Assembly: GCA_965219955.1 (NCBI GenBank)
Contig: OZ244799.1
Coordinates: forward strand, 1,728,001-1,792,000
Reading direction: 5' to 3'
Origin: a bacterium
Lineage (GTDB): Bacteria > UBA8248
Length of the DNA stretch: 64,000 nucleotides
The notes under the pieces are model-generated. The model had not been told where the DNA came from. It ran no database searches and saw only the letters and a list, made by a program, of their open reading frames with translations. Shown one piece after another: positions 48,500 to 64,000 of the stretch. Made by a program: the position numbers and the translations under genes. The first letter of the stretch is position 1. Each line of letters begins with the position of its first letter.

Positions 48500-49025
48500 G
48501 GGGGTGTTGAAAAGCCCTGACCTGCCCCCGCAAACCGCCAACGCCTCATTCCTCACCCTGAGTAGCCGCCAAAGGCGGCGTATCGAAGGGCGAGGAGAGT
48601 CGAACGCCTCGCGCCGGGTGAGAGCAAACACTCATTCATCAATCGCGTTTGACCTTCGATACGGCGCTTTCGCGCCTACTCAGGATGAGGAGTGTCGGGG
48701 AACGGCGGAGCCTGTCCCGAGCGAAGTCGAGGGAGCCTGTCCCGAGCGAAGTCGAGGGACCGCTACTCAGGATGAGGCGGTGTGGTTTTGTTCGCAATCC
48801 CGTTGCCGTCATTCCGGCGAAAGCCGGAATCCATTTTCGCCTTTGTCTTTGGCCTTTCGCCCGGCCGTCCTCTCTCCCGGCCGGGGAAGATACGGACGTC
48901 GCCATGTATATCCGCCTCATCCGTTCCGGATTCGGGCGCGGCGCTCCCTACCGCGAGTCAGAATCAAATGCGAAAACGAAAGCAAAAATCATAAAATGGA
49001 TTCCGGCTTTCGCCGGAATGACGGC
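48500..49025. repeat. Intergenic repeat cluster (CCTGAGTAGCCGCC..TATCGAAGG, GTCATTCCGGCGAAAGCCGGAATC pair, ~25-bp tandem)
   Basis: Inverted pair at ~48808 and ~48998; unit at ~48556 recurs at ~60505. Confidence 0.8.
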
Positions 49026-49237
49026 GGTGGTCAATAACGAGTGAGGGGGACTTTTTCCACCCCTCCCCCGTCCCGCTCGACCCCATTTTCACGGATTCGT
49101 CATAAACCCCGCCTACCCCCCTTCCCGCCGTTGTTGTAAGATGTCTCTCCCGGCCTTTAGGACGGCGCGGGACTTGTACCCGCATTTGTATGCCGCCGCA
49201 CCGAAGGCCGGGGCTTCATGGATTGGGAGATACCCAG

Positions 49238-50209
49238 ATGGCCTCCCCGCCGGAGCTTCCCGAACGCCTCCTGGTCGCCGTGGGCGGCAACGCGACCCAC
49301 CCGCCCGAGATACGCGGCACGGCCGCCGAACAGGCCGCCATCGCCGCCGCCACGGGCCGCGCGCTGCTCCCGCTCTTGCAGCTAAAAAACGAACTCATCA
49401 TCACGCACGGGAACGGCCCCGTGGTCGGCAAGATCCTCATGCGCCAGGCCGTCTCGAGCGAGCAGGTGACGCCGATGACGCTCGACATCTGCGTCGCCCA
49501 CAGCCAGGGGGGCATCGCCTACCTCCTCATGCAGGCGTTCGAGAACGCGCTCAGGCGCGCGGGCGACCCGCGCCACGTGGTCTGCCTCCTGACGCAGGTG
49601 GAGGTCGACCCGGCGGACCCGGCCTTCGACGCGCCGACCAAGTTCGTGGGCTACACCTACACCGAAGAAGAGGCGAGGCGGTATGAGCGCGAGATGGGCT
49701 GGACTTTCAAGCGAGACGGCGGCCGGGGCTGGCGCCACGTCGTCGCGTCGCCAAAGCCCAAGCACATCGTGGACATCTCGCTCATCGAGACGATCGCCAA
49801 GAGCGGTGCGGTCGTGATAGCGGGCGGCGGCGGGGGCATCCCCGTCGTGAGGGAGGCCGACGGGGCGCGCCGGGGGCTGGCCGCCGTCATCGACAAGGAT
49901 TTGACGTCGGCGCTCATGGCGAACGTGCTGGAGATCAAGACGATGATGATCCTGACCGCCGTGCCCCGGGTGGCCGTCCACTTCGGGACGCCCGAGCAAA
50001 GAGAGCTGACGCGCGTCTCCCTCGACGAGATCAAGAGATACCACGCCCAGGGCCACTTCCCGCCCGGCAGTATGGGCCCCAAGATAGAGGCGGCGATCCG
50101 CTTCCTCGAGGGCGGCGGCGAGCGGGTGCACATCGCAGCACTCGAGGACGCCGTCCCCGCCCTGAGGGGGGACGCGGGGACGTGTGTGTATAGGGTCAAA
50201 CGCGATTGA
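49238..50209 (+). CDS. arcC: Carbamate kinase
   Basis: VAVGGNA, ITHGNGPVVG, PTKFVG, GGGGGIPV, AVIDKDL, GSMGPKIEAA. Confidence 0.94.
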   Translation: MASPPELPERLLVAVGGNATHPPEIRGTAAEQAAIAAATGRALLPLLQLKNELIITHGNGPVVGKILMRQAVSSEQVTPMTLDICVAHSQGGIAYLLMQAFENALRRAGDPRHVVCLLTQVEVDPADPAFDAPTKFVGYTYTEEEARRYEREMGWTFKRDGGRGWRHVVASPKPKHIVDISLIETIAKSGAVVIAGGGGGIPVVREADGARRGLAAVIDKDLTSALMANVLEIKTMMILTAVPRVAVHFGTPEQRELTRVSLDEIKRYHAQGHFPPGSMGPKIEAAIRFLEGGGERVHIAALEDAVPALRGDAGTCVYRVKRD

Positions 50210-50232
50210 TGAATGAGCGTTTGCGGTACCCC

Positions 50233-50620
50233 GTAGGGACAGGCCTCCGTGCCTGTCCGGGGTCGCGACCTGTCCTCGCGTTTCGGTCATCATTACCCGT
50301 AGGGACAGGCCTCCGTGCCTGTCCTGCCTCCGTGGTTGTCCTAACCTTAAAGGCTGCCGTGGTCTTTGTTCGTCATTGAGGCCACCGATCCCGTAGGGGC
50401 GGTTCGCGAACCGCCCCTACAAAATCAGATCCCCCACCGTCGCCCCTTCGGACAGGCACGGAGGCCTGTCCCTACAATTCCTCGCGCGTCAATCGCGTTT
50501 CACTCGTAGGGGCGGACCTGCGTGTCCGCCCGGTTTTGCGTTACGACGCAATTACGCGGTGGCCCATGGGCGTTCGAAGAGGGCGGACACGCAGTCAGAC
50601 ATATATGTCTGACCCCTACA
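50233..50620. repeat. GTAG-REP cluster
   Basis: Several GTAGGG...hairpin units incl. GTAGGGGCGGTTCGCGAACCGCCCCTAC and GTCAGACATATATGTCTGACCCCTAC. Confidence 0.85.
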
Positions 50621-50754
50621 AAACCATCATCCCCCACCTCTTATATACACGCCCTTTGGACACGCCCGTCTCACAAGTGCTAGTTTTTCCCCCATAAAAA
50701 TTTCCGGTATCCGCGAGCGCGCCCGCGCGCGCCTTTGCGAAAGGGGGACGCAAG

Positions 50755-51858
50755 ATGCAGGCAGACCTGTTCCGCGTGGCGATGGACTCGCCCGACGACA
50801 TCTCCGGCGTGGCCGCTCTCATCGAGGGGGGCGAATGCCGGGCGGAGGACGTCGTCGGCATCATGGGCAAGACCGAGGGGAACGGCTGCGTGAACGATTT
50901 CTCGCGCGGGTTCAGCAACTTCGTCCTGCTCGATTATTTCTCGCGCGCGATGGGCAAGAGCCGCGAGGAGGTGGAGGCGCAGATCGCCCTCATCATGTCC
51001 GGCGGCACGGAAGGCGTCATGTGCCCGCATTTTTCGGTGTTCACGAAGTCCGAGAACGGCGCGGGCGACGGGCGCGCCAAGCGCCTCGCCATCGCTTCGG
51101 GCCACACGGCGGATTTTTTTCCTGAGGAGATGGGCCGGATGGCGCAGGTGCGCGCGACGGCGGACCTCGTAAGAAGGCTGATGGAAGAGGCGCAGATCGA
51201 GAGCGCGGCGGACCTCCACTTCGTCCAGGTGAAGTGCCCGCTCCTGACGGGCGATCGCATGGCGGACGCCTTGGGGCGCGGGAAGAGCGTCTGCACGGAG
51301 GACACGTATAAATCGATGGGCTACTCGCGCGGGGCGTCTGCGCTGGGGGTGGCCCTGGCGGCGGGCGAGGTGGCCGAAAGCGCGCTTAGCGACGAGGTGA
51401 TTTGTAAGGACTGGTCGCTCCAGTCGGGCGTCGCCTCGACCTCGGCGGGCATCGAGCTCATGTGCAACGAGGCGATGGTGATCGGCAACAGCGCGGCCTG
51501 GGGCGGGGACCTCGTCGTCGGCCACAGCGTCATGGAGGACGCCATCGACAGGGACGCGGTGAGAGACGCCATCGTGAACGCAGGGATAGCGTTCGAGTGG
51601 TCGCTGGCGCCGGCGCAGCGCGCGCGCGTCGTGAACGTGTTCGCCAAGTGCGAGGCCTCCCCCGACGGGCTGGTGCGCGGGCGGCGGCACACGATGCTCG
51701 ACGACTCGGACATCAACAACACGCGCCACGCCCGCTCGGTCGTGAACGCGGTGGTGTCTTCGGTCGTCGGCGACACGATGACCTACGTCTCGGGCGGCGC
51801 CGAGCACCAGGGCCCCCCCGGCGGCGGCCCCGTCGCGGCGGTCGTACGGGCGGGGTAG
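50755..51858 (+). CDS. atzD: Cyanuric acid hydrolase / barbiturase family ring-opening amidohydrolase
   Basis: GKTEGNGCVNDFSRG, MSGGTEG, QVKCPLLT, YSRGASALG, STSAG, YVSGGAEHQGP; the Arg in SRGASALG favours cyanuric acid hydrolase. Confidence 0.9.
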   Translation: MQADLFRVAMDSPDDISGVAALIEGGECRAEDVVGIMGKTEGNGCVNDFSRGFSNFVLLDYFSRAMGKSREEVEAQIALIMSGGTEGVMCPHFSVFTKSENGAGDGRAKRLAIASGHTADFFPEEMGRMAQVRATADLVRRLMEEAQIESAADLHFVQVKCPLLTGDRMADALGRGKSVCTEDTYKSMGYSRGASALGVALAAGEVAESALSDEVICKDWSLQSGVASTSAGIELMCNEAMVIGNSAAWGGDLVVGHSVMEDAIDRDAVRDAIVNAGIAFEWSLAPAQRARVVNVFAKCEASPDGLVRGRRHTMLDDSDINNTRHARSVVNAVVSSVVGDTMTYVSGGAEHQGPPGGGPVAAVVRAG

Positions 51859-52152
51859 GGGCGTCCCTCGATACGGCGCGCAAGCGCGCCTACTCGGGAT
51901 GAGGGTGGAGTGTCTCGTGGGCTGAACCTGACCAACGAGAGAGGGATAAACTCCCCCCTCAAGGGCCTGTTGAAAAAGTCTCGTGGAGCGATTTTGGTTG
52001 AACGCACGCTTTTGAAGTTCACTCCCCCCTTGAGGGGGAGTCGAGGAAGCCGAGCGTTTTGTGCGAAGGCTGACTCGGTGGGGGGTAAAATGCGTTTTAT
52101 CGCCACTCCAATTATACCCCCCACCGAATCGCTTGCGGGCTTACGCCCTTAG

Positions 52153-53887
52153 CCCGGATATTTCACCGAGGCTTTGGAACGGCCTGATTTGAAGTCGTGG
52201 ACGGCTTGATTCGGGAGGCGGCCTTCTTCGTCGGCGCGATACGATGACGCACGGCGCCCGAGCGGCGCTTTTTCGTCGATTTCGAAGGCTTTCGGGGAGT
52301 GCCGGCCGACGCGCAGGCGCAGGTTTCCCGCTGCGGCAACCTATGTCGCTCCGATTCTACGCTCAGTCACTCTCCCCCGCCGTCGGCCAGGGCGGGTGCG
52401 TACGCAGGTTGTTCACTACCTTTTCGAAGAGCGCCGCATGGGGCCAGGCCTCGGAGATAGACAGCCGGACCTTGCGCACGCTGACCCTCACGCGGGCGCC
52501 GATCTTGAGCAGTTTCAGCCGGATCGTTGCGCACTGGGCCCTGGCGCATGTCGTGCCCGCCAGCCCCAGGCGCCGGAGTCCGTGCATCAGGACGTAGGCG
52601 AAGGAGGCGAAGTAGAGCCGCAACTGATTGGCCCTCATGGTGGCGCTGCTGGTGCGGTCGGCGAACAGGCCGAGTTGCTGTTCCTTGATGCGGTTCTCCA
52701 TCTCTCCCCGGGCGCAGTAGAGTTCTTCGTAGAGGCGTCTGGCGCCGGCCCGCCGGGGGCGGAGATTGGTGACCACGAACCGCGGGTTCGCCCCCCTGGG
52801 CAGGTATTGCGCCTTGCCCACCACCCGGCGGGTTCTGGACCAGCTCTTGCGCGTTCGATAGCGGAAGTCGCGATACCGGCGCGCCGGCTCACCCGTGCGG
52901 CGACAGACGACCTCGGCCCGGTAGAGGTCCCGGCCAATCGCCCGCACCAGCCGCGCGTTGCGCGCCATGCCGAACACGTAGCCGACGCCGTTCTCCTCGC
53001 ACCAGCGCATCAACGGCTCGCGGCAAAAACCCGAGTCGCCGCGAACCACGACCCGCGTACGCGGCCAGCGCCTGCGGACCTGCGCCACGATCCGCGCCAA
53101 CTCCTCCTCGCTGCCGGCCGAGGCGTCGACGTTCGAGCGGCGCAGCCGCGCGCACAGCAGATGCGCGCCGCAGAAGACGTAGAGCGGCAGATAACAGTAG
53201 CGGCCGTAATAGCCGTGGAAGAAGCGCCCCTCCTGGCGACCGTGCAGGGGGTCGTCCGTGGCGTCGAGGTCCAGCCATATCTCTTCGGGCGGTTCGGCGT
53301 AAGACTCCATGAACACGTCCACCAGCAGGCGGTCCATCGCCTCGAAGTCCGCAGCGATGCGCTTGTAGCGATCCGTCGCCGCCTCGGCGCCGCCCAACTC
53401 CAGGCGGTTCAGCGTACTCGATGCGGCCAGCGGAGAGCCGCGGTCCCGAAGGCGAACCCGCCCGGCTCCCGTCAGGTCCCGCTTGCCCACCAGCAGCGCC
53501 AGCAACCTGTCGCGGCGCAAATCCTCGTGGTCGTTCAGGTCCTCGTAGCCCAGCGCCAGCGCGTACACCCGCTGCGCCGCCAGCGAGCGCACCGGGTGCT
53601 CCACGCTGCCGGGCTTGCGGCAATCACGAAAACACCGCGCCAGACGAGCCATCAGACCCAGGCGGAGATCCGTCTCGCGAAGCAGCACCCCGCCGGCGTC
53701 CGACGTGATCCGTCCGCCGTCGAATCGGGCGATGACCTCGCGTCTTCCGTGGGGGTGAAAGTGAAGTTGTTCCGGTGTACAATGCGTATCCATGGGGCCT
53801 CTCTGTCGGACGGGTGTAAGTTATTGAGACAACTCACATTATCCGACATTCAGAGGCCCCATGCCATTTGTCGGTGAAATATCCGGG
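52153..53887 (-). mobile_element. IS1380 family insertion sequence
   Basis: 17-bp perfect TIRs CCCGGATATTTCACCGA (52153-52169, 53871-53887), TTAG on both sides. Confidence 0.93.
52363..53793 (-). CDS. IS1380 family transposase
   Basis: FDGGRITSDAG, GYEDLNDH, LDLDATDD, RGDSGF, RGEMENRIKE. Confidence 0.95.
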   Translation of the reverse strand: MDTHCTPEQLHFHPHGRREVIARFDGGRITSDAGGVLLRETDLRLGLMARLARCFRDCRKPGSVEHPVRSLAAQRVYALALGYEDLNDHEDLRRDRLLALLVGKRDLTGAGRVRLRDRGSPLAASSTLNRLELGGAEAATDRYKRIAADFEAMDRLLVDVFMESYAEPPEEIWLDLDATDDPLHGRQEGRFFHGYYGRYCYLPLYVFCGAHLLCARLRRSNVDASAGSEEELARIVAQVRRRWPRTRVVVRGDSGFCREPLMRWCEENGVGYVFGMARNARLVRAIGRDLYRAEVVCRRTGEPARRYRDFRYRTRKSWSRTRRVVGKAQYLPRGANPRFVVTNLRPRRAGARRLYEELYCARGEMENRIKEQQLGLFADRTSSATMRANQLRLYFASFAYVLMHGLRRLGLAGTTCARAQCATIRLKLLKIGARVRVSVRKVRLSISEAWPHAALFEKVVNNLRTHPPWPTAGESD

Positions 53888-53891
53888 TTAG

Positions 53892-55506
53892 CAGCCTGTC
53901 GGGCTTTGGCCTGCCAAGGAGTTCGAAGCACCAATCGTGGGAGTGATTTTCGGGGTTCTTCTCGGTAATCGATTCTTGTTGGCCGGCGATTCGGTGTCAG
54001 GAGCCATGATCGGCCCTCACAGGCCCGGTGGGAGTCATAGCGGCCGGCAACAGGCCACGGGACGAGGGCGTTTATCCTCCGATCACGCCGACTTCAGGTT
54101 GTGCAGACGCTTGCAGTTATAAGCCAGCATCACCAGGACCCACTCGCCCTGCACCTTCTCGAGACCGCGCAAGAGGAACTGCCGGAAGCCCATCGCCTGC
54201 TTGACGATGCCGAACACCGGCTCCACCGTCTGCCGCCGCAGGCGATAACGGGCGCGCTCTTCCGGCTTCGCCATCTTCGCGCGCATCGCCGCAATCCACT
54301 CCGCTCGAACTTCCGGACCTGGCCGGGAAGCCACCGGTGGCCGGAAGTCGTGCCGACGGCGCCCCCCTTCGGCTTGCGTGGCCACCAGAACCTCGACGCC
54401 CCGTCTCTCGAGTTCTTCCACTTCGCTGCCCGTCGCGTAGCCGCTGTCCGCCAACACACGCGCCGGCGCGGCAACCGAAGGCGGAATCGCCTCCACGTCC
54501 GCCACCAGTTCCCCGCGGTCGCTCGCGTTGTTGCTCACACGCGCTCCCAGCACCAACTGGCTGCCTTCGGCATCCACCACCGCCTGCGCGTTGTACGCCT
54601 GGCGATACTCGTGACGCTTGCTCTTGCGCATCAAGGCGCTGTCCCCATCCGTCAGGTTGATCTGCCGCCCCTCTTCGGGCTTCTCCCGAGGGGGCTTGAT
54701 GCGCGGACCCTTCCTCCGACCTGAACGGCGCTCCCGAGACGCCGCCTTGCGTTCATATTCCGCCCGACCCGCCTCGGCCGACCTCTTCGCGCGGCGCTCC
54801 AGTTCCGCGCACGCCGCATCCAGCTTCGACTTCAACTCCTCGCGACGCGCCAACTCCTCCGGCAGCGCCTGCGGATCCCCTACCTCCTGCGCATCTTCGC
54901 TCTCCGCACGCTCCAGCAACTCCTCGACCTCTCCGCGCAATTGAGAGCCCAACGCCTGCGCACGGTCATACCGGACGTTGTTGTGCTTGCTCGCGTTCGC
55001 GTCCACCTTCGTCCCGTCCACGCTCACCGTCCCGACCCGCAACAACTTCAACTCCTTCGCCAGCAGCAAAACCTGCTCGAACGTCTCCGCTATCGCCTCG
55101 AAGTTATCGCGACGGAACGCGCAGATCGTGTCGTGGTCCGGGTGTGTGTTCGACGCCACGTATCGAACCCCGATATCCCGGTACGTCGCGCGCTCGATCC
55201 GGCGCGAACCGAATATCCCGTTCGCGTAGCAGTAAATCAGCAGCGCCAGCATCATCCGGGGATGGTACTGCGCTGAACCCGTGCCGCGCTCGTTCACGCG
55301 GAATGACCCCAGAGGCACCCGTTCCACCGCCTCCACTACGAAGTGCGCCAGATCGTCCTCCGGCAACCACTCCCGCATGTCCACAGGAAGAAGATACAAC
55401 TGCGACTGATTACAATCTACAAACTTCGCCACCCCAATCCCCTCCCTTAAAAATACCTCGCGAGAACGACATATTATAAAAGGTAGGGCCTAAGTCCGAC
55501 AGGCTG
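53892..55506 (-). mobile_element. IS1182 family insertion sequence
   Basis: 20-bp TIRs CAGCCTGTCGGRCTTWGGCC with 2 mismatches, TTAG on both sides. Confidence 0.9.
54083..55432 (-). CDS. IS1182 family transposase
   Basis: YHPRMMLALLIY, PDHDTICAFR, VDGTKVDANAS, YNAQ, ADSGY, VEPVFGIVK. Confidence 0.95.
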   Translation of the reverse strand: MAKFVDCNQSQLYLLPVDMREWLPEDDLAHFVVEAVERVPLGSFRVNERGTGSAQYHPRMMLALLIYCYANGIFGSRRIERATYRDIGVRYVASNTHPDHDTICAFRRDNFEAIAETFEQVLLLAKELKLLRVGTVSVDGTKVDANASKHNNVRYDRAQALGSQLRGEVEELLERAESEDAQEVGDPQALPEELARREELKSKLDAACAELERRAKRSAEAGRAEYERKAASRERRSGRRKGPRIKPPREKPEEGRQINLTDGDSALMRKSKRHEYRQAYNAQAVVDAEGSQLVLGARVSNNASDRGELVADVEAIPPSVAAPARVLADSGYATGSEVEELERRGVEVLVATQAEGGRRRHDFRPPVASRPGPEVRAEWIAAMRAKMAKPEERARYRLRRQTVEPVFGIVKQAMGFRQFLLRGLEKVQGEWVLVMLAYNCKRLHNLKSA

Positions 55507-55611
55507 TTAGCTCTTCGACTCCCCCTCAAGGGGGGAGTTTATCTCTTTCGTCGGTGGAGAATTCCCTCAAGGGGGGAGTGATTGCATATCTCGCTGGTGG
55601 TGGTCTTTCCC

Positions 55612-56676: not shown

Positions 56677-56677
56677 G

Positions 56678-58225
56678 TCAGGACACCTCTTCTCTGTGGC
56701 CCGCCATGAGCGCGCCTATCCGGTAGATGTCGTATTCGGGGCCGTCGAAGGCGCCCAGAATCTCGCCCGCGTAGATGACGACGATGCGGTCGCTCATCTG
56801 GCAGAGCTCGTCGAGGTCTTCCGATATCAGCAGCACGCCCGCGCCGCCCGCGCGAAGCTCGCGCAGCCTGCCGTGCACGAACGAGGCGGCCATGACGTCC
56901 AGCCCGCGCGTGGGGTTGTTCGCGATCATCACCTTCCCGCCCGTCTTGTGGGCGAGCATGACCGCGCGCGCCACGATGGTCTTCTGGATGTTCCCCCCCG
57001 AGAGGTGCGCGGCCGGCACGTGCTCGTTCCTGGCCAGGATGTTGAACTCCGCGATGGCGTTCCTGCCGAGCTCATGAGCGGCCTCGCGCTCGAACACGCC
57101 GCGCCGCCTGAAGATGTGCGGGTGCAGGCCGAGCACGAAATTCTCGGCCAGGCTCAGGCCCGGCAGAATGCCCTCCTCTATCCTGTCCTGCGGCAGGAGG
57201 CTCATCCCCCGCGCGATGCGCCCGGCCACCGAGAGGTTTGATACTTCTTCGCCGTCGATATGGACCTCGCCTTCTTCCGTTTCGATGAGCCCGGCCAGGG
57301 CTTCCGCCAGCTCTTTCTGGCCGTTTCCCGAGATGCCCGCCATGCCGACGATGAGCCCCCGGGGGACGTCGAAGGCGACGCCCCTGATTGGAACCCCCCA
57401 TTTCCCGGAAGTACGCACTCCCCGCACCGAAAGCGCGGGACCCCCCTCTCTGGCCGCCGAGGGTCCGGTCGGCCGCTCGCCCTCGGGAGGCATCCCGCGC
57501 TCGCCCATCATCATCTGCACCAGCCTGTCGCGGGTGGCCTCCTGGCGCGAGATCGTGTCGATCTTCAGCCCGCCGCGGAACACGGTGATCCGGTCGCAGT
57601 TGTCCAGGACCTCCTGGATCTTGTGCGTGATGAAGACGACCGTCAGCCCCCCCTTGGCGAAGGATTTCAGGATCGAGAACAGCCCGTCCACCTCGTGGGG
57701 GGTGAGCATGGTCGTCGGCTCGTCCAGGATCAGGATGTCCGCGCCGTGGTAGAGCGCCTTCAGGATTTCGACCTTCTGCTGAATGCCCGCGGGCAGGGTT
57801 TTCACCCCCTCATCCAGCGGGATGGAGAGGCCGTAATTCGCCGCAAGTTCCTCCACGGAGCTGCGCCGGGCCTCGACGTCGAGCTTCCAGCGCGAACCCT
57901 CGCGCCCGAGCAGGATGTTCTCTAGCGCCGTGAAGTTGCCGATCAGCTCCACGTGCTGGTGAACCATCCCGACGCCGACCGCGATCGCATCCTGGGGCGA
58001 GTGGATATCCACCTCGCGCCCGTCGATCGCGATTCGGCCCTCGTCCATGCGGTAGAGGCCGCTCAGGATGTTCATGAGCGTCGTCTTGCCCGCGCCGTTC
58101 TCCCCCAGGAGGGCGTGGATCTCCCCCTTGGCGGCCTCGAAGTCCACCGCGCCCAGGGCGCGGACCTCCCCGAAGGACTTGCTGACGCCGTGCATCTCGA
58201 CGCAGGCGGCGGTTTTTTCCGTCAT
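56678..58225 (-). CDS. ABC transporter ATP-binding protein (dual NBD, sugar/nucleoside type)
   Basis: GENGAGKTT, ILDEPT, LSGGNIQK, PTRGLD. Confidence 0.95.
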   Translation of the reverse strand: MTEKTAACVEMHGVSKSFGEVRALGAVDFEAAKGEIHALLGENGAGKTTLMNILSGLYRMDEGRIAIDGREVDIHSPQDAIAVGVGMVHQHVELIGNFTALENILLGREGSRWKLDVEARRSSVEELAANYGLSIPLDEGVKTLPAGIQQKVEILKALYHGADILILDEPTTMLTPHEVDGLFSILKSFAKGGLTVVFITHKIQEVLDNCDRITVFRGGLKIDTISRQEATRDRLVQMMMGERGMPPEGERPTGPSAAREGGPALSVRGVRTSGKWGVPIRGVAFDVPRGLIVGMAGISGNGQKELAEALAGLIETEEGEVHIDGEEVSNLSVAGRIARGMSLLPQDRIEEGILPGLSLAENFVLGLHPHIFRRRGVFEREAAHELGRNAIAEFNILARNEHVPAAHLSGGNIQKTIVARAVMLAHKTGGKVMIANNPTRGLDVMAASFVHGRLRELRAGGAGVLLISEDLDELCQMSDRIVVIYAGEILGAFDGPEYDIYRIGALMAGHREEVS

Positions 58226-58280
58226 AACGCCTTCCGTTCCGACGCCCCGCCCCGCTCGGGGGACGGGGCGCTCACATGCC

Positions 58281-59282
58281 CTATTTCGCCAGCATGACCT
58301 TCTTCATTTCCAGCCGGGGTTTGATCTTCCCGGCCAGTACTTGTTCATACGCCTCCTTGGTTCTTTTCATGGCCTCGGCCGATACGTTGCCCAAAGAGGT
58401 GATCTCGAATCCGACCCCGAGTTTCATGGGCACGTAGCCTCCGGGCGATCCTTTCAGGATTCCCGCCAGGGCTTTCTGGTAGGGAGGCCGGAAATCGATG
58501 ATCAGCGTGCCGGCGAAGTGCTTGGGCGCCTTGTCCGTCTTGTCGGTGTAGAACGTGGTGACCAGCACCTTGCGCTTCGACTTCTTGGCGGCCTCGACGA
58601 CGCCGTACACGCCCAGGTTCACCATGTTGATGATGAAGTCGACGCCGTTCGCGATCATGGCGTCGGCGGTCTGGCGCGCCTTGACCGGATCGTTCTGGTT
58701 TCCGGTGAAGGCGTAGGTGAGTTGCGCCTTGGGGTTGGTCGCCTTGAGCGCATCCGAGATGGTGTTGATGGAAGCCTTGAAGTCCGGAAGCGGGATTCCC
58801 GCGATGACGCTCACCTTGTTCGTCTTCGTGGCGAGGCCGGCCAGCACGCCGAAGGGATAGAAGGCCTCGAAATAGTGTCGGTGAATGTTCCAGACGTTCT
58901 TGGGAACCTTGAATTTTCCGGAACTCTCCATCACGAACGTCACTTCGGGAAACTTAGGCGCCAGCTTCTGTACGAGCCGGACGTACTGCCCGCCGTGGAA
59001 GCCGATGATGGTGAAGCCCGAGGAGATGTACTCGCGCGCCACCCGCTCGGCGTCCGCGGGTGAGATGCGCTCGGAGTAGGAGGTTTCGATCTTGAACCTC
59101 TTCTTGATGTCCTGGGCGACTTCATAGCCCCGGAAGTTGTAGTCCGCATCCTCGATGGGTCCCGGCAGGATGATGGCGAACTTGTGGGCCTTCGCGGCGA
59201 GCGCCTGGCCGGGTGCGATCAGGGCAAGGGCTGCGAGCGCGGCGGCGGCGAAGAACAATCGGCGTGTCCATTTCGTTTTCAT
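58281..59282 (-). CDS. BMP family ABC substrate-binding protein
   Basis: Signal peptide; PGPIEDADYN, FTGNQNDPVKA; lies between permease and ATPase genes. Confidence 0.85.
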   Translation of the reverse strand: MKTKWTRRLFFAAAALAALALIAPGQALAAKAHKFAIILPGPIEDADYNFRGYEVAQDIKKRFKIETSYSERISPADAERVAREYISSGFTIIGFHGGQYVRLVQKLAPKFPEVTFVMESSGKFKVPKNVWNIHRHYFEAFYPFGVLAGLATKTNKVSVIAGIPLPDFKASINTISDALKATNPKAQLTYAFTGNQNDPVKARQTADAMIANGVDFIINMVNLGVYGVVEAAKKSKRKVLVTTFYTDKTDKAPKHFAGTLIIDFRPPYQKALAGILKGSPGGYVPMKLGVGFEITSLGNVSAEAMKRTKEAYEQVLAGKIKPRLEMKKVMLAK

Positions 59283-59327
59283 TTCACACTCCTCCTTGAT
59301 GAGAAAGCACGATTGCCCGGACATGGA

Positions 59328-60269
59328 TCAATCCCGGGCTTCACGGTCGTATGGCCTCGTGAGCGCGCGCGGGCTTTCGGCGCCCCGCGCGACCTGGACC
59401 AGAACTATCATGGCGAACACGTACGGCAGCATCAGCAAAAACTGCGGCGGTATGATCTTCGCGTATTGCGGCAGGGCGTTCACCTTGAACTGGAAGGCGT
59501 CCACATAGGCGAAGAGCAGCGCGCCGACGAACGACCATACCGGCACCCAGCGTCCGAAGATCACCAGCATCAGGGCGAGCCACCCTCTTCCGTTCACGAT
59601 GTTGTCCGTGAACGAGCCCGAGATCACGAGCGGCAGGTATGCGCCCGCCACGCCCAGAAACAGCCCGCCCACCGCACACGCGCCGTAGCGCATGCGGGCG
59701 ACGTCTATCCCCACCGTATCCGCCGCGCGGGGGTTCTCCCCGCAGGCGCGCAGCCTCAGGCCCAGCGGCGTCTTGAAGAGGAAGAAACTCACCGCCGCGA
59801 CGAGGAAATAGGACAGATAGACGAGTCCGTTCTGTGCGAAGAAAATCTCGCCGATGAAGGGAATGCTCCCCAGGAGCGGGATGTGTATCTCCTTTAACGT
59901 CGGCACCTGGGGAATGGACTGCACGACGCCCACCGCCAGCCGGTAGATGGTGGGCGATATCCCCAGCCCCAGGACGAATATCCCCAGCCCGATGACGATC
60001 TGGTTCGCCCGCAGGGTGATGGAAAAATACGCCAGAAGCAGCGTGAGGACGCTCCCCGAGAGCGCCGCGACCATGCAGCCGATGATCGCACTGCCCGAGT
60101 AGTAGGTGAGCAGAAAGCCCGTCACCGAGCCGAGCGTCACGACCCCCTCGATGCCGACGTTCAGAATCCCCGAGCGCTCGATGATGGTCTCGCCCAGGCA
60201 CGCGATGATGAGCGGCGCCATCATGAGCATCGTGAGCTGGAAAAGGGATATGTCGAACAAGAGGGACAA
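59328..60269 (-). CDS. ABC transporter permease (nucleoside/purine type)
   Basis: ERSGILNVGIEG, GLRLRACGENP, GRGWLAL, MLPY; TTG start with GGGGAG RBS. Confidence 0.92.
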   Translation of the reverse strand: MSLLFDISLFQLTMLMMAPLIIACLGETIIERSGILNVGIEGVVTLGSVTGFLLTYYSGSAIIGCMVAALSGSVLTLLLAYFSITLRANQIVIGLGIFVLGLGISPTIYRLAVGVVQSIPQVPTLKEIHIPLLGSIPFIGEIFFAQNGLVYLSYFLVAAVSFFLFKTPLGLRLRACGENPRAADTVGIDVARMRYGACAVGGLFLGVAGAYLPLVISGSFTDNIVNGRGWLALMLVIFGRWVPVWSFVGALLFAYVDAFQFKVNALPQYAKIIPPQFLLMLPYVFAMIVLVQVARGAESPRALTRPYDREARD

Positions 60270-60499
60270 GAAGGCGCACTCCCCGCGTGTGGCGTGAAAA
60301 TGTGAAAACTCGTCTCCGTACATCGCTGCCCGGGAGACGGGATATATTATCCTTGTCGCTTTCCGCCAGTATGCCTCATGCATACCCAAATTCAAAATAT
60401 GCAGGTTTCATGTTTCCGGCGTGTAACGTGATTACGCGGCGTTCCGCTCGTGTTTCGGGAGCGGCTCGCTCCCCTCGCCCTGTTTGGTCCCTGTGTTGA

Positions 60500-60930
60500 C
60501 CTCACCCTGAGTAGCCGCCGAAGGCGGCGTATCGAAGGGCGGCCCCAATTGAACAATGAGGGATTGCTCCGAGCCCGTCGAGAGAAGCGACCCTCTTCTT
60601 GGCTGGCAATCGCTCCCGCATTGGGGCTGTTGAAAAAGCCCGGAACTCTGGATTTGTCGTATGTAACCGACCGACGAGAGAGAAAAATCACTCCCCCTCA
60701 AGGGGTTGTTGAAAAACCCTGTTTTGGGGTCGGCGGCATGGAGGTTCACGCGGCGCAGGCGCGATGGTTTTGTAGGGACAGGCCTCCGCGCCTGTCCTCA
60801 CGAAGGACAACCACGAAAGGCAGGACAGGCACGGAGGCCTGTCCCTACGGGCGAATGCAGTTTTGATCGTCATTCCGGCAATCAATGCCGACCGAGGAGG
60901 GGTTTTTCAACAGCTACCCTTGAGGGGGAT
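60500..60930. repeat. Repeat cluster including second copy of the ~230-bp composite element at 43153-43388
   Basis: 60690-60914 is near-identical to 43141-43385. Confidence 0.88.
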
Positions 60931-61015
60931 GTGTAGGTCGATGGGGTGGACGCCTCCTTCCGGCGGATTAGAATGTGGCGAGACGACGTCACACACCGCC
61001 CGGAAGGAGACGACC

Positions 61016-62041
61016 ATGGGAGGAGTCTACATCATCGGGGTCGACTTGGCGAAACACAGTTTTCAACTCCACGGCGCGTGGGCGGACGGGCGGGTCGCGT
61101 TCCGCAAGAAGCTGACGCGGGCGAAGGTGCTGGAGTTTCTGTCGTCGCAGCCTCGATGCGTGGTGGCGATGGAGGCGTGCGCGAGCGCGCACTACTGGGG
61201 GCGCGAGGTCGGCAAGCTCGGCCATGAGGTTCGGCTCATGCCGCCGGTCTACGTGAAGCCCTACGTGAAGCGCCACAAGAACGACGCGGCGGATGCGGAG
61301 GCCATTTGCGAGGCGGCCACCCGGGCGACGATGCGCTTCGTGGCGGTGAAGAGCGAAGCGCAGCAGGGGTGTGGGATGGAGTACCGCACGCGGGATTTGC
61401 TGGTGGGTCAGCGCACGCAGGCGCGCAACGCGCTGCGCAGCCACCTGGCGGAGTTCGGGGTCGTCGAGCGGCAAGGGCCCGTGGGCCTCACACGGCTGGC
61501 GGCGGCGGTTCGGGGAGCGGAATCGGGCCTGCCCGAGGAGGTCCGCGAGTTGGGCGGGATTCTGCTCGCCCAGATTGGCGGCCTCGATGCGAAGGTCCGG
61601 GAGTTGACCGGACGGCTCCGGGCGAGCGCATACGCGGACGAGGAGGCGCGGCGTCTGATGAGCATCCCGGGTGTTGGTCCGATTACGGCGTCGGCGATCC
61701 GGGCGTTCGCGCCGCCGGTGGAGAACTTCCGTCGGGGCCGTGACTTCTCGGCCTGGCTGGGTCTGGTTCCCCGGCAGCACTCCACGGGGGGCAAGCCCCG
61801 TCTGGGGGGCATGTCGAAGATGGGCCAGCGCGACGTGAGGCGTCTGTTGATATCGGGCGCGATGTCGGAGATACGCTGGGCGGGGCGTCGCCGGAAGCCG
61901 CCGTGTCCGTGGCTGGCGCGGATGCTGGCGCGCAAGCCGAGGAAGGTGGTGGCGGTGGCGCTGGCGAACCGGATGGCGCGCATCGCGTGGGCGCTGATGC
62001 GGAACAAGGATGTCTACAGGGAGCCGGCGCCCCTCGCCTGA
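61016..62041 (+). CDS. IS110 family DEDD transposase/recombinase
   Basis: IGVDLAK, MEAC, KNDAADAEAI, SIPGVGPITA, WLGLVPRQHSTGGK, VALANRMARIAW. Confidence 0.96.
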   Translation: MGGVYIIGVDLAKHSFQLHGAWADGRVAFRKKLTRAKVLEFLSSQPRCVVAMEACASAHYWGREVGKLGHEVRLMPPVYVKPYVKRHKNDAADAEAICEAATRATMRFVAVKSEAQQGCGMEYRTRDLLVGQRTQARNALRSHLAEFGVVERQGPVGLTRLAAAVRGAESGLPEEVRELGGILLAQIGGLDAKVRELTGRLRASAYADEEARRLMSIPGVGPITASAIRAFAPPVENFRRGRDFSAWLGLVPRQHSTGGKPRLGGMSKMGQRDVRRLLISGAMSEIRWAGRRRKPPCPWLARMLARKPRKVVAVALANRMARIAWALMRNKDVYREPAPLA

Positions 62042-62099
62042 GCGGCGGGCGCACGGATAGAGCCGGGAGGAATGTGAGCAGGCCGGAGGAAGGGTAAGG

Positions 62100-62260
62100 G
62101 CAAACGGTCATCGAGACGGGACCGGGAAAACCAGATATATGTCCAGAGCCACCGAGCTCACCAGGTCGATTTGGACCCGGTCCACCTATCTCCATACGGG
62201 CCCGCGGCCAGAGTAAAGCGCCGCAACGAAGAGGCCGGATATACGACTGAGCCGAACCGC
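62100..62260 (+). ncRNA. Putative IS1111 bridge/seek RNA region (boundaries approximate)
   Basis: Contains ATATATGTCC and AGGTCG matching the target flanks and ATATACG matching the element's right end. Confidence 0.65.
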
Positions 62261-62635
62261 TTTGCGCCGAACCCTCCCCAAAAACCGCTTGCATTCTCGT
62301 GGGCGTCCATATACGGACATATATGTCCGACGTATACGCGACCCTGCCTTTTCGCCTTCCAGCGACGGGCCGCATATATGCGGCCCCTACAATCAATTCC
62401 ACCCGGTGAGGAAGGGATTGCCGGAATGACGGTGAACAATCTCGATTGGGGGCAAGAACCCCTTAGGGGGACTTTTTCAACAGCCCCCGTCGCATCCCGT
62501 TCGCAGTGCAAGCCGATGCGTTGCCCGCCGCTTCGGCTTCATACATAATGCGCGCATTGCATACGCTTCCCATACGAACCGACCACCCAGGATGGAGATC
62601 GTTTCTTTATCTTCGTGTAAAAGGAGACCTCCGAG

Positions 62636-63355
62636 ATGGAATTGATCGATCTGAGCATGGAAATATACCGGGACATGCCGATTTACCCGGACCTGCCCGG
62701 CCCCTCCCTCACCGTCGATGAAGACTGGGACACCGTGGCAAGGCGGACGGGCTCCATCAACTATGGCGCCCCCATCGTGACGAACCACTGCGTCATCTTC
62801 ATGAGCGACCATACGGGCACGCACATCGACTCCCCCTGGCACAACAACCCCGATGGCTTCACGACCGAGCGCATCCCCCTCGAATGGTGCATGTCGGACG
62901 GCGTCGTCCTCGACTTCACCGACAAGGAGTCGGGTTACGCCATCACGGCGGCGGACCTGGAAGGCGCGCTCCAGAAGATCGACTATTCTCTTAAACCGCT
63001 CGACATCGTGCTCATCCGCACCGACGCGAGCGTGGACTGGCAGACGAACCCCGACTACACGATGAACCAGCCCGGCATGAGCGCGGAGGCGACCCACTAC
63101 CTCATCGACAACGGCATCCGCGTGATGGGGATCGACGCGAGCGGCTGGGACGTGCCGATCTGGAAGATGCACGAGACGCGCAGCTACTGGGAGGCCCACC
63201 GGGTCATGCTGGAGAAGGACTACTGCCACATCGAGAACATGATCAACCTGAACCTGATCCCCAAGTCCCACGGGTTCAAGCTCTCGGTGCTGCCCATCAA
63301 GTTCCGCGGCATGTCGGGCTCCCCCATTCGCGCGGTGGCGATCATCGACGACTAG
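62636..63355 (+). CDS. Cyclase family (kynurenine formamidase-like) metal hydrolase
   Basis: LIDLS, HTGTHIDSPWH, DIVLIRT, GID, HIENM, GSPIRAVA. Confidence 0.92.
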   Translation: MELIDLSMEIYRDMPIYPDLPGPSLTVDEDWDTVARRTGSINYGAPIVTNHCVIFMSDHTGTHIDSPWHNNPDGFTTERIPLEWCMSDGVVLDFTDKESGYAITAADLEGALQKIDYSLKPLDIVLIRTDASVDWQTNPDYTMNQPGMSAEATHYLIDNGIRVMGIDASGWDVPIWKMHETRSYWEAHRVMLEKDYCHIENMINLNLIPKSHGFKLSVLPIKFRGMSGSPIRAVAIIDD

Positions 63356-63373
63356 CTCCGGGGGACGAGTGAA

Positions 63374-64000
63374 ATGGCGCTGGCCGTCCGCGTCTTAAGC
63401 GGCGCGTACCACGATTCGGTGAAGCTCATGCGCATCAGCGCCGCCGCCTCGGAGAAGATTCACATCAGGCAAGCGGCGGCCTTGATGGCCACGCCGATGA
63501 ACCTGGAGCAACTCGCAGCGAGCGGCCTGTTGGCGGAAGAAGCGAAAGGCGCCGGCCCGAACGACCTCGTCCTCGTCGTGGATGCGGATGACCAAAGCGC
63601 AGCGCAAGAAGAATTGGCCGCCATGGAAGCGGCGCTCACCGCCCCCCGCACGGGCGGCGGTGGAGCGGGCGCGCTCGCGAACCTCACGGCACCCACTTTG
63701 GACGCCGCCCTCGGCGCAGACCCCCTCATCAACCTCGCCCTTTTCTCGATTCCCGGCCCGAGCGTGCGCCGCGAGGCCGAACGCGCACTCGGTAAAGGCC
63801 TCCACTGCCTCATCTTCAGCGACAACGTATCGGTGGAAGACGAGGCGGCGCTCAAGCAGATGGGGCGCGAGCGGGGGCTGCTCGTCATGGGTCCCGACTG
63901 CGGCACGGCGCACATCGGCGGCGTGGGCTTAGGTTTTTGCAACGTCATGAGGGCCGGCGGAATCGGTATCGTCGGCGCCGCCGGAACCGGGATTCAGGAG
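63374..64000 (+). CDS. fdrA: FdrA-like acyl-CoA synthetase (runs off right edge)
   Basis: Manual translation MALAVRVLSGAYHDSVKLMRIS...MATPMN...NLALFSIPG...IFSDNV...LVMGPDCGTA...IGIVGAAGTGIQE. Confidence 0.9.
   Translation, partial: MALAVRVLSGAYHDSVKLMRISAAASEKIHIRQAAALMATPMNLEQLAASGLLAEEAKGAGPNDLVLVVDADDQSAAQEELAAMEAALTAPRTGGGGAGALANLTAPTLDAALGADPLINLALFSIPGPSVRREAERALGKGLHCLIFSDNVSVEDEAALKQMGRERGLLVMGPDCGTAHIGGVGLGFCNVMRAGGIGIVGAAGTGIQE

Follow-up and report, generated by a model that had tools for sequence, protein, structure and literature searches.

Results

Layout of the locus

The window, meaning the whole 64,000-nt stretch analysed here, comes from the 4.28-Mb genome of a marine bacterium. 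A preliminary description had placed near its end a carbamate kinase gene (arcC), an atzD-like gene, a BMP-type ABC importer, a cyclase and fdrA; Pfam and NCBIfam searches recovered all of them, in that order and on the strands given (Table 1). In one RNA library, only four short contig pieces map to arcC/atzD. The three IS elements of that description were confirmed as well, by transposase domains, IS-free relatives and further genome copies, and its short repeats are likewise present in intergenic DNA. Three relatives without the IS elements (L031, L009 and L011), when aligned with the window, delimit the insertions, and L031 has spacers of 438 nt and 366 nt where the window has 51861–55610 and 60717–62467, respectively. 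The second site is the spacer from which the importer operon and the cyclase–fdrA–allG operon diverge. The two IS copies of the first block have ten and four further near-full-length copies in the genome at 99.7–100% identity, and the IS110-family insertion has additional copies at 97–99.9%. The coding sequences flanking all three elements are intact and no gene is broken by these intergenic insertions; the three copies are probably recent passengers.

Table 1. Features of the atzD–fdrA locus, in window coordinates.
Feature	Position	Strand	Basis
arcC, carbamate kinase	49190..50209	+	PF00696
atzD/trzD-type cyanuric acid amidohydrolase	50755..51858	+	PF09663, NF052395
Intergenic block with two IS copies	51861..55610		Pfam; comparison with L031
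IS transposase, DDE_Tnp_1_4	52363–53793	−	Pfam
IS transposase, DDE_Tnp_1 + DUF772 (IS5-like)	54083–55432	−	Pfam
BMP-type ABC importer, whole (permease, double ATPase, BMP binding protein, permease)	55612–60395	−	
ABC permease 2	55612..56676	−	PF02653; NF047929 154 bits, below cut-off
ABC ATPase, two cassettes	56678..58225	−	PF00005, two stretches; NF047930 434 bits, below cut-off
BMP/PnrA-family substrate-binding protein	58281..59324	−	PF02608, 110 bits
ABC permease 1	59328..60395	−	PF02653; NF047928 196 bits, below cut-off
IS110-family insertion (transposase ORF 60863–62041, +)	60717..62467		PF01548 + PF02371
Cyclase-family metal-dependent amidohydrolase (kynurenine formamidase/isatin hydrolase-like)	62636..63355	+	PF04199
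fdrA (allF homologue), 5' part	63374..64000	+	NF004760, E 2.9e-56 for window part
fdrA, whole gene (518 aa; L001:1374–2930), ending outside window	to window-equivalent 64930	+	
allG (ylbE; 485 aa; L001:2891–4348), outside window	window-equivalent 64891–66348		PF06545, 320 bits

Identity of the encoded enzymes

The product of arcC, the sole copy in the genome (tblastn), scores below the cut-off of TIGR00746 (333 against 358 bits) and above that of the carbamate-kinase subfamily model NF009007 (309 against 266), and is 41% identical to E. coli YbcF/AllK. The window's AtzD matches PF09663 with 491 bits and the cyanuric acid amidohydrolase equivalog NF052395 with 522 bits (cut-off 360). Its top PDB matches are TrzD (5t13, 483 bits) and the Moorella cyanuric acid hydrolase (CAH; 6bum, 447 bits), with barbiturase (5hwe) at 269 bits, and the alignment shows that it keeps the motifs GKTEGNG, MSGGTEG, VKCPLL, STSAG and SGGAEHQGP. 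An AtzD from a linked operon in Moorella mulderi is near-identical over its full length (740 bits) to the crystallised Moorella thermoacetica CAH, for which PMC6557486 describes the substrate and the product, carboxybiuret. Because of this near-identity with a characterised enzyme, the hydrolase of the AtzD–FdrA/AllG operons is, as judged from its sequence, a true cyanuric acid hydrolase.

The whole fdrA product scores 447 bits against NF004760 (cut-off 433), also matches PF00549 and PF02629, and is 39% identical to E. coli FdrA. Both ylbE and ylbF had been anticipated past position 64000. The former, allG (ylbE/DUF1116), does lie directly 3' of fdrA and encodes a protein 53% identical to E. 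coli YlbE; the latter, allH (ylbF/DUF2877), is absent after fdrA, the sole PF11392 match in the genome being 334 kb away at C1:2125748–2126068. All 22 AllGs encoded with FdrA beside AtzD, the window's included, begin with ~50 residues that match the tail of E. coli FdrA at its C terminus, at E values of 0.005–0.21 in the weakest cases. This match is absent from E. coli YlbE, from a second AllG encoded elsewhere in the window genome and from the AllG of the Chloroflexota locus L056. At L056, the genes for AllG and AtzD are ~8.5 kb apart and no FdrA gene is visible. A quick tree nests YlbE among the AtzD-linked AllGs without separation, so these proteins give no sign of altered specificity.

The cyclase gene begins the same operon, 18 nt upstream of fdrA (PF04199, 132 bits). 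Its product matches 8hmo, kynurenine formamidases and isatin hydrolases in the PDB, and has HTGTHIDSPWH where the hydrolase 8hmo has HTGTHVDAPLH. No other protein encoded in the cluster is as well conserved as this one, which is 89–100% identical among relatives. Among the loci compared, a cyclase before fdrA is confined to the window's lineage, where it occupies the position of allH in other phyla.

Linkage of AtzD to FdrA/AllG across phyla

FdrA and/or AllG are encoded within 10 kb of AtzD at 24 of 79 AtzD loci (tblastn, E ≤ 1e-10, coverage of at least 50%). The window clade contributes 12 of its 18 loci, the remaining six stopping before that position. The other 12, from 61 loci outside the clade, are spread over five other phyla: Pelolinea (L028), Chloroflexota (L046, L056), Thermodesulfobacteriota (L032), Melaminivora (L047, L070), Moorella mulderi (L058), Dactylosporangium (L061), Enterococcus aquimarinus (L065), Bacillota (L067, L072) and Naasia (L073). 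Since PF06545 is rare among control genomes, being matched in a single one of 14, the grouping is not due to chance. Seven of these 12 loci, from four phyla (L028, L032, L047, L058, L067, L070, L072), have allG followed directly by atzD on the same strand, the two genes overlapping by 17 nt at one extreme and lying 149 nt apart at the other. arcC is visible at seven of the 12, and AllH (PF11392) is encoded directly before fdrA at L028, L058, L061, L065 and L073 and divergently beside the cluster at L032; each of five genomes searched has exactly one allH.

The cross-phylum operons have no cyclase gene, and a 10–12-helix transporter or nucleobase permease takes the importer's position. Their companions are nucleobase permeases (NCS1, xanthine/uracil), PucR regulators and a cytosine-deaminase-like amidohydrolase, and no linked locus contains allantoin genes. 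In the AtzD tree, linked genes fall into at least five separate subclades, with amidase- or BiuH-linked genes on other branches.

Hydrolytic enzymes and distribution within the genus

No biuret or allophanate hydrolase is encoded within the window region 49190–64000, as the preliminary description had noted. Its implication that a hydrolytic finish is missing genome-wide did not hold: a search of the genome found no BiuH equivalog, but did find urease and, outside the cluster, an allophanate-hydrolase-type amidase domain (NF006043, 642 bits), which together leave room for such a finish. AllD and AllC, which would make oxalurate by the E. coli route, are not found above cut-off in this genome. 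In five genomes with a linked operon, neither BiuH nor allophanate hydrolase occurs above cut-off (0/5 each; Moorella and Enterococcus have one match each to the allophanate-hydrolase model, below cut-off). Four of the five have no urease-alpha match, and Enterococcus has two partial ones, about 40–50 of 121 profile positions and barely above cut-off.

Within the genus, an AtzD orthologue (at least 85% identity) is present in 14 of 22 genomes and an AllG orthologue (at least 81%) in 18; in G014, G019, G022 and G027, AllG is present and AtzD was not found. The order in G022 is arcC> <ABC cyclase> fdrA> allG>, with neither atzD nor a remnant of it between arcC and the importer, and at this locus G019 has the ABC–cyclase–fdrA–allG core and neither arcC nor atzD. 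In this genus, atzD is an optional, dispensable add-on to that core, and the FdrA/AllG module, kept without atzD, must also handle something not made by AtzD. Linkage of AtzD and AllG is absent from class-level relatives. We regard the locus as a real, conserved island of genes for the catabolism of the s-triazine ring and related N-acylureas.

Discussion

What would such an island accomplish? We propose, with a probability of about 0.55, that phosphorolysis of a ring-opened N-acylurea (whether carboxybiuret, biuret or allophanate) yields carbamoyl phosphate, from which carbamate kinase would make ATP. Cyanurate would be imported by the BMP-type ABC system and its ring opened by AtzD to yield 1-carboxybiuret. 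An AllF/AllG-type carbamoyltransferase, here FdrA and AllG, probably with the distantly encoded AllH, would then move the terminal carbamoyl group of the N-acylurea onto phosphate, in the way that oxalurate and Pi give oxamate and carbamoyl phosphate in E. coli; biuret or allophanate, as decay products of carboxybiuret, could serve as alternative substrates. Carbamate kinase would convert carbamoyl phosphate and ADP to ATP, NH3 and CO2. The lineage-specific cyclase-family hydrolase probably provides or consumes a further amide within this pathway.

Strong independent support for phosphorolysis comes from the AtzD–FdrA/AllG linkage in five other phyla, often with AllH and carbamate kinase. It is further supported by the five linked-operon genomes in which BiuH and allophanate hydrolase above cut-off, and any full urease match, are missing. 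The near-identity of the Moorella operon enzyme to a characterised CAH, the AtzD subclades, the FdrA tail on AllG, the lack of AllD and AllC above cut-off and of a BiuH equivalog in the window genome, and the published work on AllFGH and on the nitrifier gene neighbourhoods discussed below also count in its favour. Against it count the lack of a clustered allH, one of three genes that E. coli needs, the dispensability of atzD in the genus, its unlinked state in class-level relatives, the nesting of YlbE among the linked AllGs, and the presence of urease and an allophanate-hydrolase-type amidase. The original suggestion that carboxybiuret or biuret may be phosphorolysed by an FdrA-type enzyme with carbamate kinase thus stands in part, since ylbF does not follow fdrA, urease and amidase are present and atzD is optional. 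We found no paper linking cyanuric acid hydrolase to an FdrA/AllG carbamoyl-phosphate/ATP module in our literature search, and the recurrence of this gene partnership in five other phyla points to an undescribed, energy-yielding route of triazine-ring breakdown.

Hydrolytic cyanurate pathways run through AtzD–AtzEG–AtzH–AtzF in Pseudomonas sp. ADP and AtzD/TrzD–BiuH–AtzF/TrzF in Rhizobium and Herbaspirillum. They share their first enzyme and first product, carboxybiuret, with the route proposed here, but the window cluster lacks BiuH, AtzE and full-length AtzF, amidase- or BiuH-linked AtzDs occupy other branches of the 79-locus tree, and the hydrolytic routes conserve no energy. In the arginine and agmatine deiminase pathways, a catabolic ornithine or putrescine transcarbamylase acts with carbamate kinase. 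There too a ureido compound is phosphorolysed to carbamoyl phosphate with substrate-level ATP formation, whereas here the transferase is an unrelated one (FdrA/AllG type), and a triazine ring would be the source of the carbamoyl donor.

A close precedent is the E. coli allFGHK operon, which encodes the oxamic transcarbamylase AllF–AllG–AllH and AllK (PMC11326118, PMC9843812). PMC11326118 describes AllFGH as a phosphate-dependent carbamoyltransferase that partners the carbamate kinase AllK and requires all three of allF, allG and allH. The window's FdrA, AllG and carbamate kinase are homologous to these proteins, and the proposed logic, from N-acylurea and phosphate through carbamoyl phosphate to ATP, is the same. 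In contrast to the E. coli operon, which adjoins the allantoin genes allECD, the window cluster adjoins a cyanuric acid hydrolase and an importer, has its allH elsewhere in the genome, carries the ~50-residue FdrA tail on AllG, and would act on a substrate lacking a C–C bond. PMC12625717, which covers hydrolytic cyanuric acid pathways in part, reports that comammox Nitrospira and ammonia-oxidising archaea have allFGHK and bmpA–nupABC next to biuH/trtA/atzF, and that the comammox contigs with allFGHK lack the carboxybiuret decarboxylase gene trtB. The pairing resembles that at the present locus, with enzymes of the biuret/triuret/carboxybiuret family accompanied by a BMP-type importer and an AllFG(H)K module; unlike the window genome, the nitrifier genomes lack atzD according to that paper, whose authors read allFGHK as a separate oxalurate pathway.

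Such a separation could apply here as well, although we consider it unlikely: AtzD would feed a hydrolytic route only, its product decarboxylating spontaneously to biuret for amidases, allophanate hydrolase and urease, and FdrA/AllG/ArcC would be unrelated to it, forming an ordinary oxalurate transcarbamylase system that serves the breakdown of purines or allantoin. The resemblance of FdrA and AllG to the E. coli proteins, the nesting of YlbE, the urease and amidase elsewhere in the genome, the four congeners with fdrA/allG in which atzD was not found and the published treatment of the nitrifier genes all fit this view. Chance or co-location fails, however, to explain why allG and atzD overlap or lie no more than 149 nt apart at seven loci in four phyla, or why BiuH and allophanate hydrolase above cut-off and any full urease match are missing from the five linked-operon genomes. 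Moreover, cyanurate has no C–C bond, so oxalurate is not obtainable from it, and neither AllD/AllC in the window genome nor allantoin genes at the linked loci were found.

Less probable still, the importer, cyclase and FdrA/AllG core of the window's lineage may serve a different imported ureide or ring, with AtzD and ArcC as later add-ons sharing the outlet only. By chemical analogy, the cyclase might open or deacylate parabanate, an isatin-like alpha-keto lactam, to oxalurate, or act on triuret or biuret. The core without atzD (G022, G019) or arcC (G019) is in keeping with this idea, as are the cyclase's conservation, its 8hmo-like histidine/aspartate-rich stretch, the isatin hydrolases among its matches and its place exactly where allH lies in other phyla. 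Such a role leaves the cyclase-free cross-phylum operons unexplained, and it does not conflict with a supply of substrate from AtzD to the same enzyme. It is very improbable that the AtzD homologue opens barbiturate or another pyrimidine-derived ring for FdrA/AllG to phosphorolyse ureidomalonate, likewise an N-acylurea: the nucleobase permeases, PucR regulators and cytosine-deaminase-like amidohydrolase in other phyla would suit this, but the window AtzD exceeds the cyanuric-acid equivalog cut-off and matches solved cyanuric acid hydrolases far above barbiturase, and the Moorella operon enzyme is near-identical to the crystallised Moorella CAH.

Gene content of the cluster

The window belongs to a genome of 4.28 Mb on a single contig (G000:C1, positions 1728001-1792000), and its gene map was drawn from an ORF listing together with Pfam and NCBIfam family scans (see the table). 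These scans bore out the genes named in the preliminary description, namely arcC, atzD, a BMP-type importer, a cyclase-family gene and fdrA, the last of which runs into the stretch beyond the window's end (L001). It had been expected that ylbE and ylbF would come after fdrA: ylbE (allG) does follow, but ylbF (allH, PF11392) does not, the family scan of L001 revealing nothing of the kind after allG. The sole AllH of the genome lies at 2.126 Mb, adjoining an ApbA-type reductase; it is intact and syntenic, with 88% and 77% identity in two relatives.

The 145-aa ORF next after allG was rejected both as a gene and as a substitute for AllH, on account of its low-complexity, Ser/Pro-rich translation and the absence of any Pfam or NCBIfam match. 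Behind it, L001 encodes a Peripla_BP_6 binding protein, two LivH/LivM-type permeases and a DHDPS-family protein. On the other side, two large ORFs upstream of arcC match no Pfam or NCBIfam family, and their homologs occupy the same place in three related loci (L009, L018 and L031). Downstream of the cluster lies a DUF433/DUF5615 gene pair, a pairing typical of toxin-antitoxin-like modules.

Features of the cluster, its flanks and related genes elsewhere in the genome (window positions unless marked; L001, stretch past the window's end; L005-L007 and L089, other loci of the same genome)
Feature	Position	Strand	Remarks
554-aa ORF	43882-45546	-	
567-aa ORF	45727-47430	-	
arcC	49190-50209	+	Pfam, NCBIfam
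atzD	50755-51858	+	Pfam, NCBIfam
Transposase gene 1	52363-53793	-	Pfam
Transposase gene 2	54083-55432	-	Pfam
BMP-type ABC importer	55612-60395	-	Four genes: permease, double ATPase, BMP binding protein, permease
IS110-family transposase	60863-62041	+	Pfam
Cyclase-family gene	62636-63355	+	PF04199
fdrA	63374, continuing into L001	+	518 aa; NF004760 447 bits, cut-off 433
allG/ylbE	L001:2891-4348		485 aa; overlaps end of fdrA; PF06545 320 bits
FdrA-tail-like start of allG	L001:2891-3090 (window-equivalent 64891-65090)		
145-aa ORF	L001:4358-4795		
DUF433/DUF5615 pair	L001:11316-12463 (window-equivalent about 73316-74463)		
Short intergenic repeats	49000-49100, 50212-50615, 51828-51960, 55509-55584, 60623-60716		
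Second AtzD	L005:10562-11668 (in G000:C1:860001-880000, ~870 kb)		Equivalog 399 bits, above cut-off
Second AllG	L007:8896-16683 (G000:C1:3105750-3114000)		Region with amidohydrolase and importer
Second FdrA	L006:8856-10361		Beside amidase
AllH	C1:2125748-2126068		
Allophanate-hydrolase-type amidase	L089:7999-9519 (~712 kb)		NF006043 642, cut-off 487; TIGR02713 599, cut-off 511

The hydrolase

The atzD product matches its family over the full length (PF09663, 491 bits) and exceeds the curated thresholds of TIGR02714 (511 bits, cut-off 153) and of the cyanuric acid amidohydrolase equivalog NF052395 (522, cut-off 360). Among solved relatives it is closest to TrzD (5t13, 483 bits) and the Moorella thermoacetica enzyme (6bum, 447), with barbiturase (5hwe) at 269. 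The Moorella hydrolase is described as having three Ser-Lys dyads and a Ca loop (PMC6557486). When the residue numbers of that source were matched by eye in an alignment with 6bum, the window protein proved to keep the stretches that hold Lys40, Ser83, Lys161, Ser231, Lys299 and Ser347, as well as the Ca loop SGGAEHQGPxGGG. The protein is assigned to the cyanuric acid hydrolase family, and is predicted to open cyanurate to carboxybiuret. In M. mulderi, AtzD is encoded inside an allH-fdrA-allG-atzD operon and is near-identical over its full length to the crystallized M. thermoacetica hydrolase (740 bits); judged by the sequence of this protein, the enzyme of the AtzD-linked operons is a real cyanuric acid hydrolase.

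The FdrA-AllG pair and carbamate kinase

In the Escherichia coli system, AllF (FdrA), AllG and AllH interconvert oxamate plus carbamoyl phosphate and oxalurate plus phosphate, working with the carbamate kinase AllK (PMC11326118). The cluster shares with it FdrA (39% identity over 516 residues) and an adjacent AllG (53% identity to YlbE), but has neither allH in the operon nor the context of allantoin genes. None of the allantoin/oxalurate-forming genes allD, allC and allE occurs in the window or L001, and genome-wide no AllD or AllC exceeds its cut-off (best 216 bits against 496 and 295 against 598, respectively). FdrA resembles the alpha subunit of succinyl-CoA synthetase, a likeness that by analogy would fit a half-reaction forming an acyl phosphate. 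The single arcC of the genome encodes a protein of the amino-acid-kinase fold that is 41% identical to E. coli YbcF (AllK), passes NF009007 (309 bits, cut-off 266) and falls just below the TIGR00746 equivalog cut-off (333 against 358).

The AtzD-linked pairs differ from those of E. coli in how sequence is divided between the two subunits: FdrA measures about 494-528 aa and AllG some 456-514 aa, the E. coli proteins being 555 and 419 aa long. At its N-terminus, AllG has ~50 residues that correspond to the C-terminal tail of FdrA in E. coli. The correspondence holds for each of the 22 AllGs whose gene stands together with fdrA beside atzD, that of the present cluster among them (E values of 0.005-0.21 in the three weakest cases); it is absent from E. 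coli YlbE, from the second AllG of the genome (416 aa) and from the AllG of L056, a Chloroflexota locus where AllG lies ~8.5 kb from AtzD with no FdrA in view. The relocated tail may mark a functional subfamily.

Linkage of AtzD to FdrA and AllG across phyla

A scan for AtzD relatives in one genome per species yielded 79 loci, taken with flanks of up to 10 kb. These were compared by tblastn with the window's proteins, and their 1132 called ORFs were clustered, the cluster representatives being scanned with Pfam and NCBIfam. FdrA and/or AllG stands beside AtzD in 24 of the 79. The window's own clade contributes 18 loci, from records labelled Nitrospinota or simply bacterium; 12 show the same arrangement without IS elements, and the other six end too early to tell. 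Outside this clade the linkage recurs in 12 of 61 loci, spread over Chloroflexota (L028, L046, L056), Thermodesulfobacteriota (L032), Betaproteobacteria (two Melaminivora loci, L047 and L070), Bacillota (M. mulderi L058, Enterococcus aquimarinus L065, L067, L072) and Actinomycetota (Dactylosporangium L061, Naasia L073). In seven of these 12 loci, atzD comes immediately after allG in the same orientation, the two genes overlapping by as much as 17 nt or standing as far as 149 nt apart. Likewise seven of the 12 show arcC within the stretch examined. AllH is encoded directly before fdrA in five of the loci from other phyla and, in L032, divergently next to the cluster; five genomes were searched for allH, and every one carries a single copy. 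In a tree of AtzD (72 rows), the AllFG-linked genes fall into at least five subclades, and those linked to an amidase or BiuH (Paenibacillus, Burkholderiales) fall elsewhere. A quick-search tree of AllG (25 rows, with long branches meeting) did not separate the AtzD-linked AllGs from E. coli YlbE.

The companions of these genes vary with lineage and include NCS1 or xanthine/uracil permeases, PucR regulators, a cytosine-deaminase/AtzC-like amidohydrolase, a BiuH-like isochorismatase below the BiuH cut-off, stand-alone AH_C domains and a family-less membrane protein. The stand-alone AH_C genes (PF21986, ~130 aa) adjoin atzD or arcC in L033, L056 (12483-12875) and L061 (17469-17861), and hint that some forms of the pathway pass through N-carboxycarbamate or something similar.

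One ORF that matches no Pfam or NCBIfam family (UNK14; ~345-530 aa, most copies 411-441 aa) precedes fdrA, allH or atzD in eight loci: L032, L046, L047, L058 (4830-6065), L065, L067, L070 and L072. A hydropathy scan predicted 7-12 hydrophobic segments, with 10-12 in six of the eight copies, and its neighbors by Atlas features, taken as a lead only, are anion transporters of the DctM/DcuC/GntP type. A role as a third enzyme subunit was rejected; the protein is most likely the importer, and a candidate cyanurate transporter.

We also searched five genomes with linked operons (Moorella, Enterococcus, Naasia, Melaminivora and Pelolinea), some of them incomplete assemblies, for downstream enzymes of the hydrolytic route. 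In none of these five, some incomplete, was a BiuH or an allophanate hydrolase found above cut-off, Moorella and Enterococcus each giving one hit to the allophanate hydrolase model below it. Four of the five, with the same proviso on completeness, had no match to urease alpha, and Enterococcus gave two short partial matches just above cut-off.

AtzD as an accessory within the genus

Among 22 genomes of the same genus, an AtzD ortholog is present in 14 and an AllG ortholog in 18; AllG accompanies AtzD in all 14, four genomes have neither, and AtzD was not found in four that carry AllG (G014, G019, G022 and G027). The locus of G022 reads arcC> <ABC cyclase> fdrA> allG>, with merely 293 nt at the would-be site of atzD, and that of G019 consists of <ABC cyclase> fdrA> allG> only. 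The core of the cluster in this lineage is therefore the importer, the cyclase, FdrA and AllG, with AtzD and ArcC as accessories. In relatives at the level of the class, AtzD and AllG are unlinked. The AllG orthologs of G015 (C8:81363-82814) and G023 (C1:2259904-2261340) contain one or two in-frame TGA codons, and the AtzD match of G015 is split in two; these could be signs of cluster decay or assembly errors.

Across the 79 AtzD loci the cyclase gene was found only in the window's lineage, where it always lies directly before fdrA. A comparison of the window's copy with the orthologs of L009-L033, L105 and L106 indicates that no other protein of the cluster is so well conserved (89-100% identity across relatives, mostly 95-100%, against 71-92% for FdrA), and the genome holds at least 15 paralogs of the family. 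Its His/Asp-rich stretch HTGTHIDSPWH aligns with HTGTHVDAPLH of a matched metal-dependent hydrolase (8hmo). The enzyme may hydrolyze a further amide, such as allophanate or biuret, or may open another ring.

Insertion elements and repeats

The three IS elements and the short intergenic repeats reported earlier were confirmed by family scans, alignment to relatives and further copies in the genome. Aligned with its closest IS-free relatives (L031, L009 and L011; about 86-95% nucleotide identity in coding blocks), the window carries a two-IS block where atzD and the importer converge, in place of 438 nt, and an IS110 copy where the importer and the cyclase gene diverge, in place of 366 nt. The coding sequences are all intact. 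Since further copies of each element elsewhere in the genome are 97-100% identical, the insertions are recent. The short repeats occur in many copies in the genome and its relatives, with a contig depth tens of times that of the flanking genes in four of four runs; they look like a MITE-like element family.

Related genes elsewhere in the genome

A second AtzD, 43% identical to the first and present in most genomes of the genus, is surrounded by genes for a TRZ/ATZ-type amidohydrolase, a cupin, RidA, an FAD amine oxidase, another cyclase-family protein and an MFS transporter, and this cluster may serve a separate aminotriazine or purine-like pathway. The second AllG gene overlaps one for a cytosine-deaminase/AtzC-like amidohydrolase, itself 43% identical to one in the AtzD operon of L072, and faces a complete Liv-type ABC importer. 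This site and that of the second FdrA are separate, so genes of the family are scattered in this IS-rich genome.

The hydrolytic enzymes were sought genome-wide, as the preliminary description had proposed. No BiuH equivalog was found in the genome, the best isochorismatase being RutB-like (117 bits against 370 for NF050097). For AtzF the outcome was divided: an allophanate-hydrolase-type amidase gene, about 1 Mb from the window, scores above its cut-offs, but it spans the amidase part alone (profile positions 6-444 of 600), and three stand-alone AH_C queries gave no match to that domain in the genome. Urease is present.

Discussion

Which substrate do these FdrA-AllG pairs act on? Cyanurate has no C-C bond, and hence oxalurate cannot be the product of an operon centered on a genuine cyanuric acid hydrolase. 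Like oxalurate, which is urea acylated by an oxalyl group, carboxybiuret, biuret and allophanate are N-acylureas, their respective acyl groups being carboxycarbamoyl, carbamoyl and carboxyl; this makes carbamoyl transfer to phosphate chemically plausible for the AtzD product as well. The minimal operons (transporter, allH, fdrA, allG, atzD and arcC) fit a route in which either one or two carbamoyl groups per ring pass through carbamoyl phosphate to ATP, given that neither a biuret or allophanate hydrolase nor a full urease was found in the genomes that carry them.

We tentatively propose, with a probability of roughly three in ten, that AllF/AllG(/AllH)-type proteins are general N-acylurea phosphorylases and that, combined with AtzD and carbamate kinase, they form a fully phosphorolytic pathway for cyanuric acid. 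Cyanurate would be opened to carboxybiuret, which would react with phosphate to yield carbamoyl phosphate and allophanate; a second phosphorolysis would convert allophanate to carbamoyl phosphate and carbamate. Each ring would give up to 2 ATP and 3 NH3 in this way, and neither a biuret hydrolase nor an allophanate hydrolase nor a urease would take part. That the ring-opened product is phosphorolysed to carbamoyl phosphate, as first suggested for this cluster, has strong support from synteny across phyla and partial support in this genome, the function itself being predicted from sequence.

To our knowledge, all known cyanuric acid pathways are purely hydrolytic. A full-text search, covering few subscription journals, found no link of cyanuric acid hydrolase with FdrA/AllFGH or carbamate kinase, and within the literature so covered the association appears to be new. 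In comammox and archaeal ammonia oxidizers, allFGHK and bmpA-nupABC lie beside biuH/trtA/atzF and were assigned by the authors to a separate oxalurate pathway (PMC12625717). The comammox contigs with allFGHK are described there as being without the carboxybiuret decarboxylase trtB, which is consistent with carboxybiuret as a substrate of AllFGH.

If the proposed pathway is correct, it would be the first energy-conserving route for the triazine ring, which would then serve as a source of energy to anaerobes, Moorella and Enterococcus among them, and to bacteria that are marine or associated with sponges or corals. It would also explain a highly active cyanuric acid hydrolase in anaerobes where no biuret or allophanate hydrolase was found, and add a second class of substrates to the recently discovered AllFGH transcarbamylase family. 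The annotation of allFGHK in nitrifiers and symbionts would change, the nitrifier genes next to those for biuret and triuret being re-read as part of a phosphorolytic pathway.

Cyanuric acid is the common intermediate in the breakdown of s-triazine herbicides, melamine and the stabilizer of pool chlorine. It is also described as a natural product (PMC12342508), and the Moorella hydrolase is reportedly in use for water treatment (PMC4631802, PMC9118981). A coral metatranscriptome (X20) contained four contig pieces of 137-273 nt on arcC and atzD, from related strains; with DNA carry-over possible, these are too weak a sign of transcription. Large parts of the arcC-atzD region recur in DNA runs labelled as sponge, coral and marine metagenomes.
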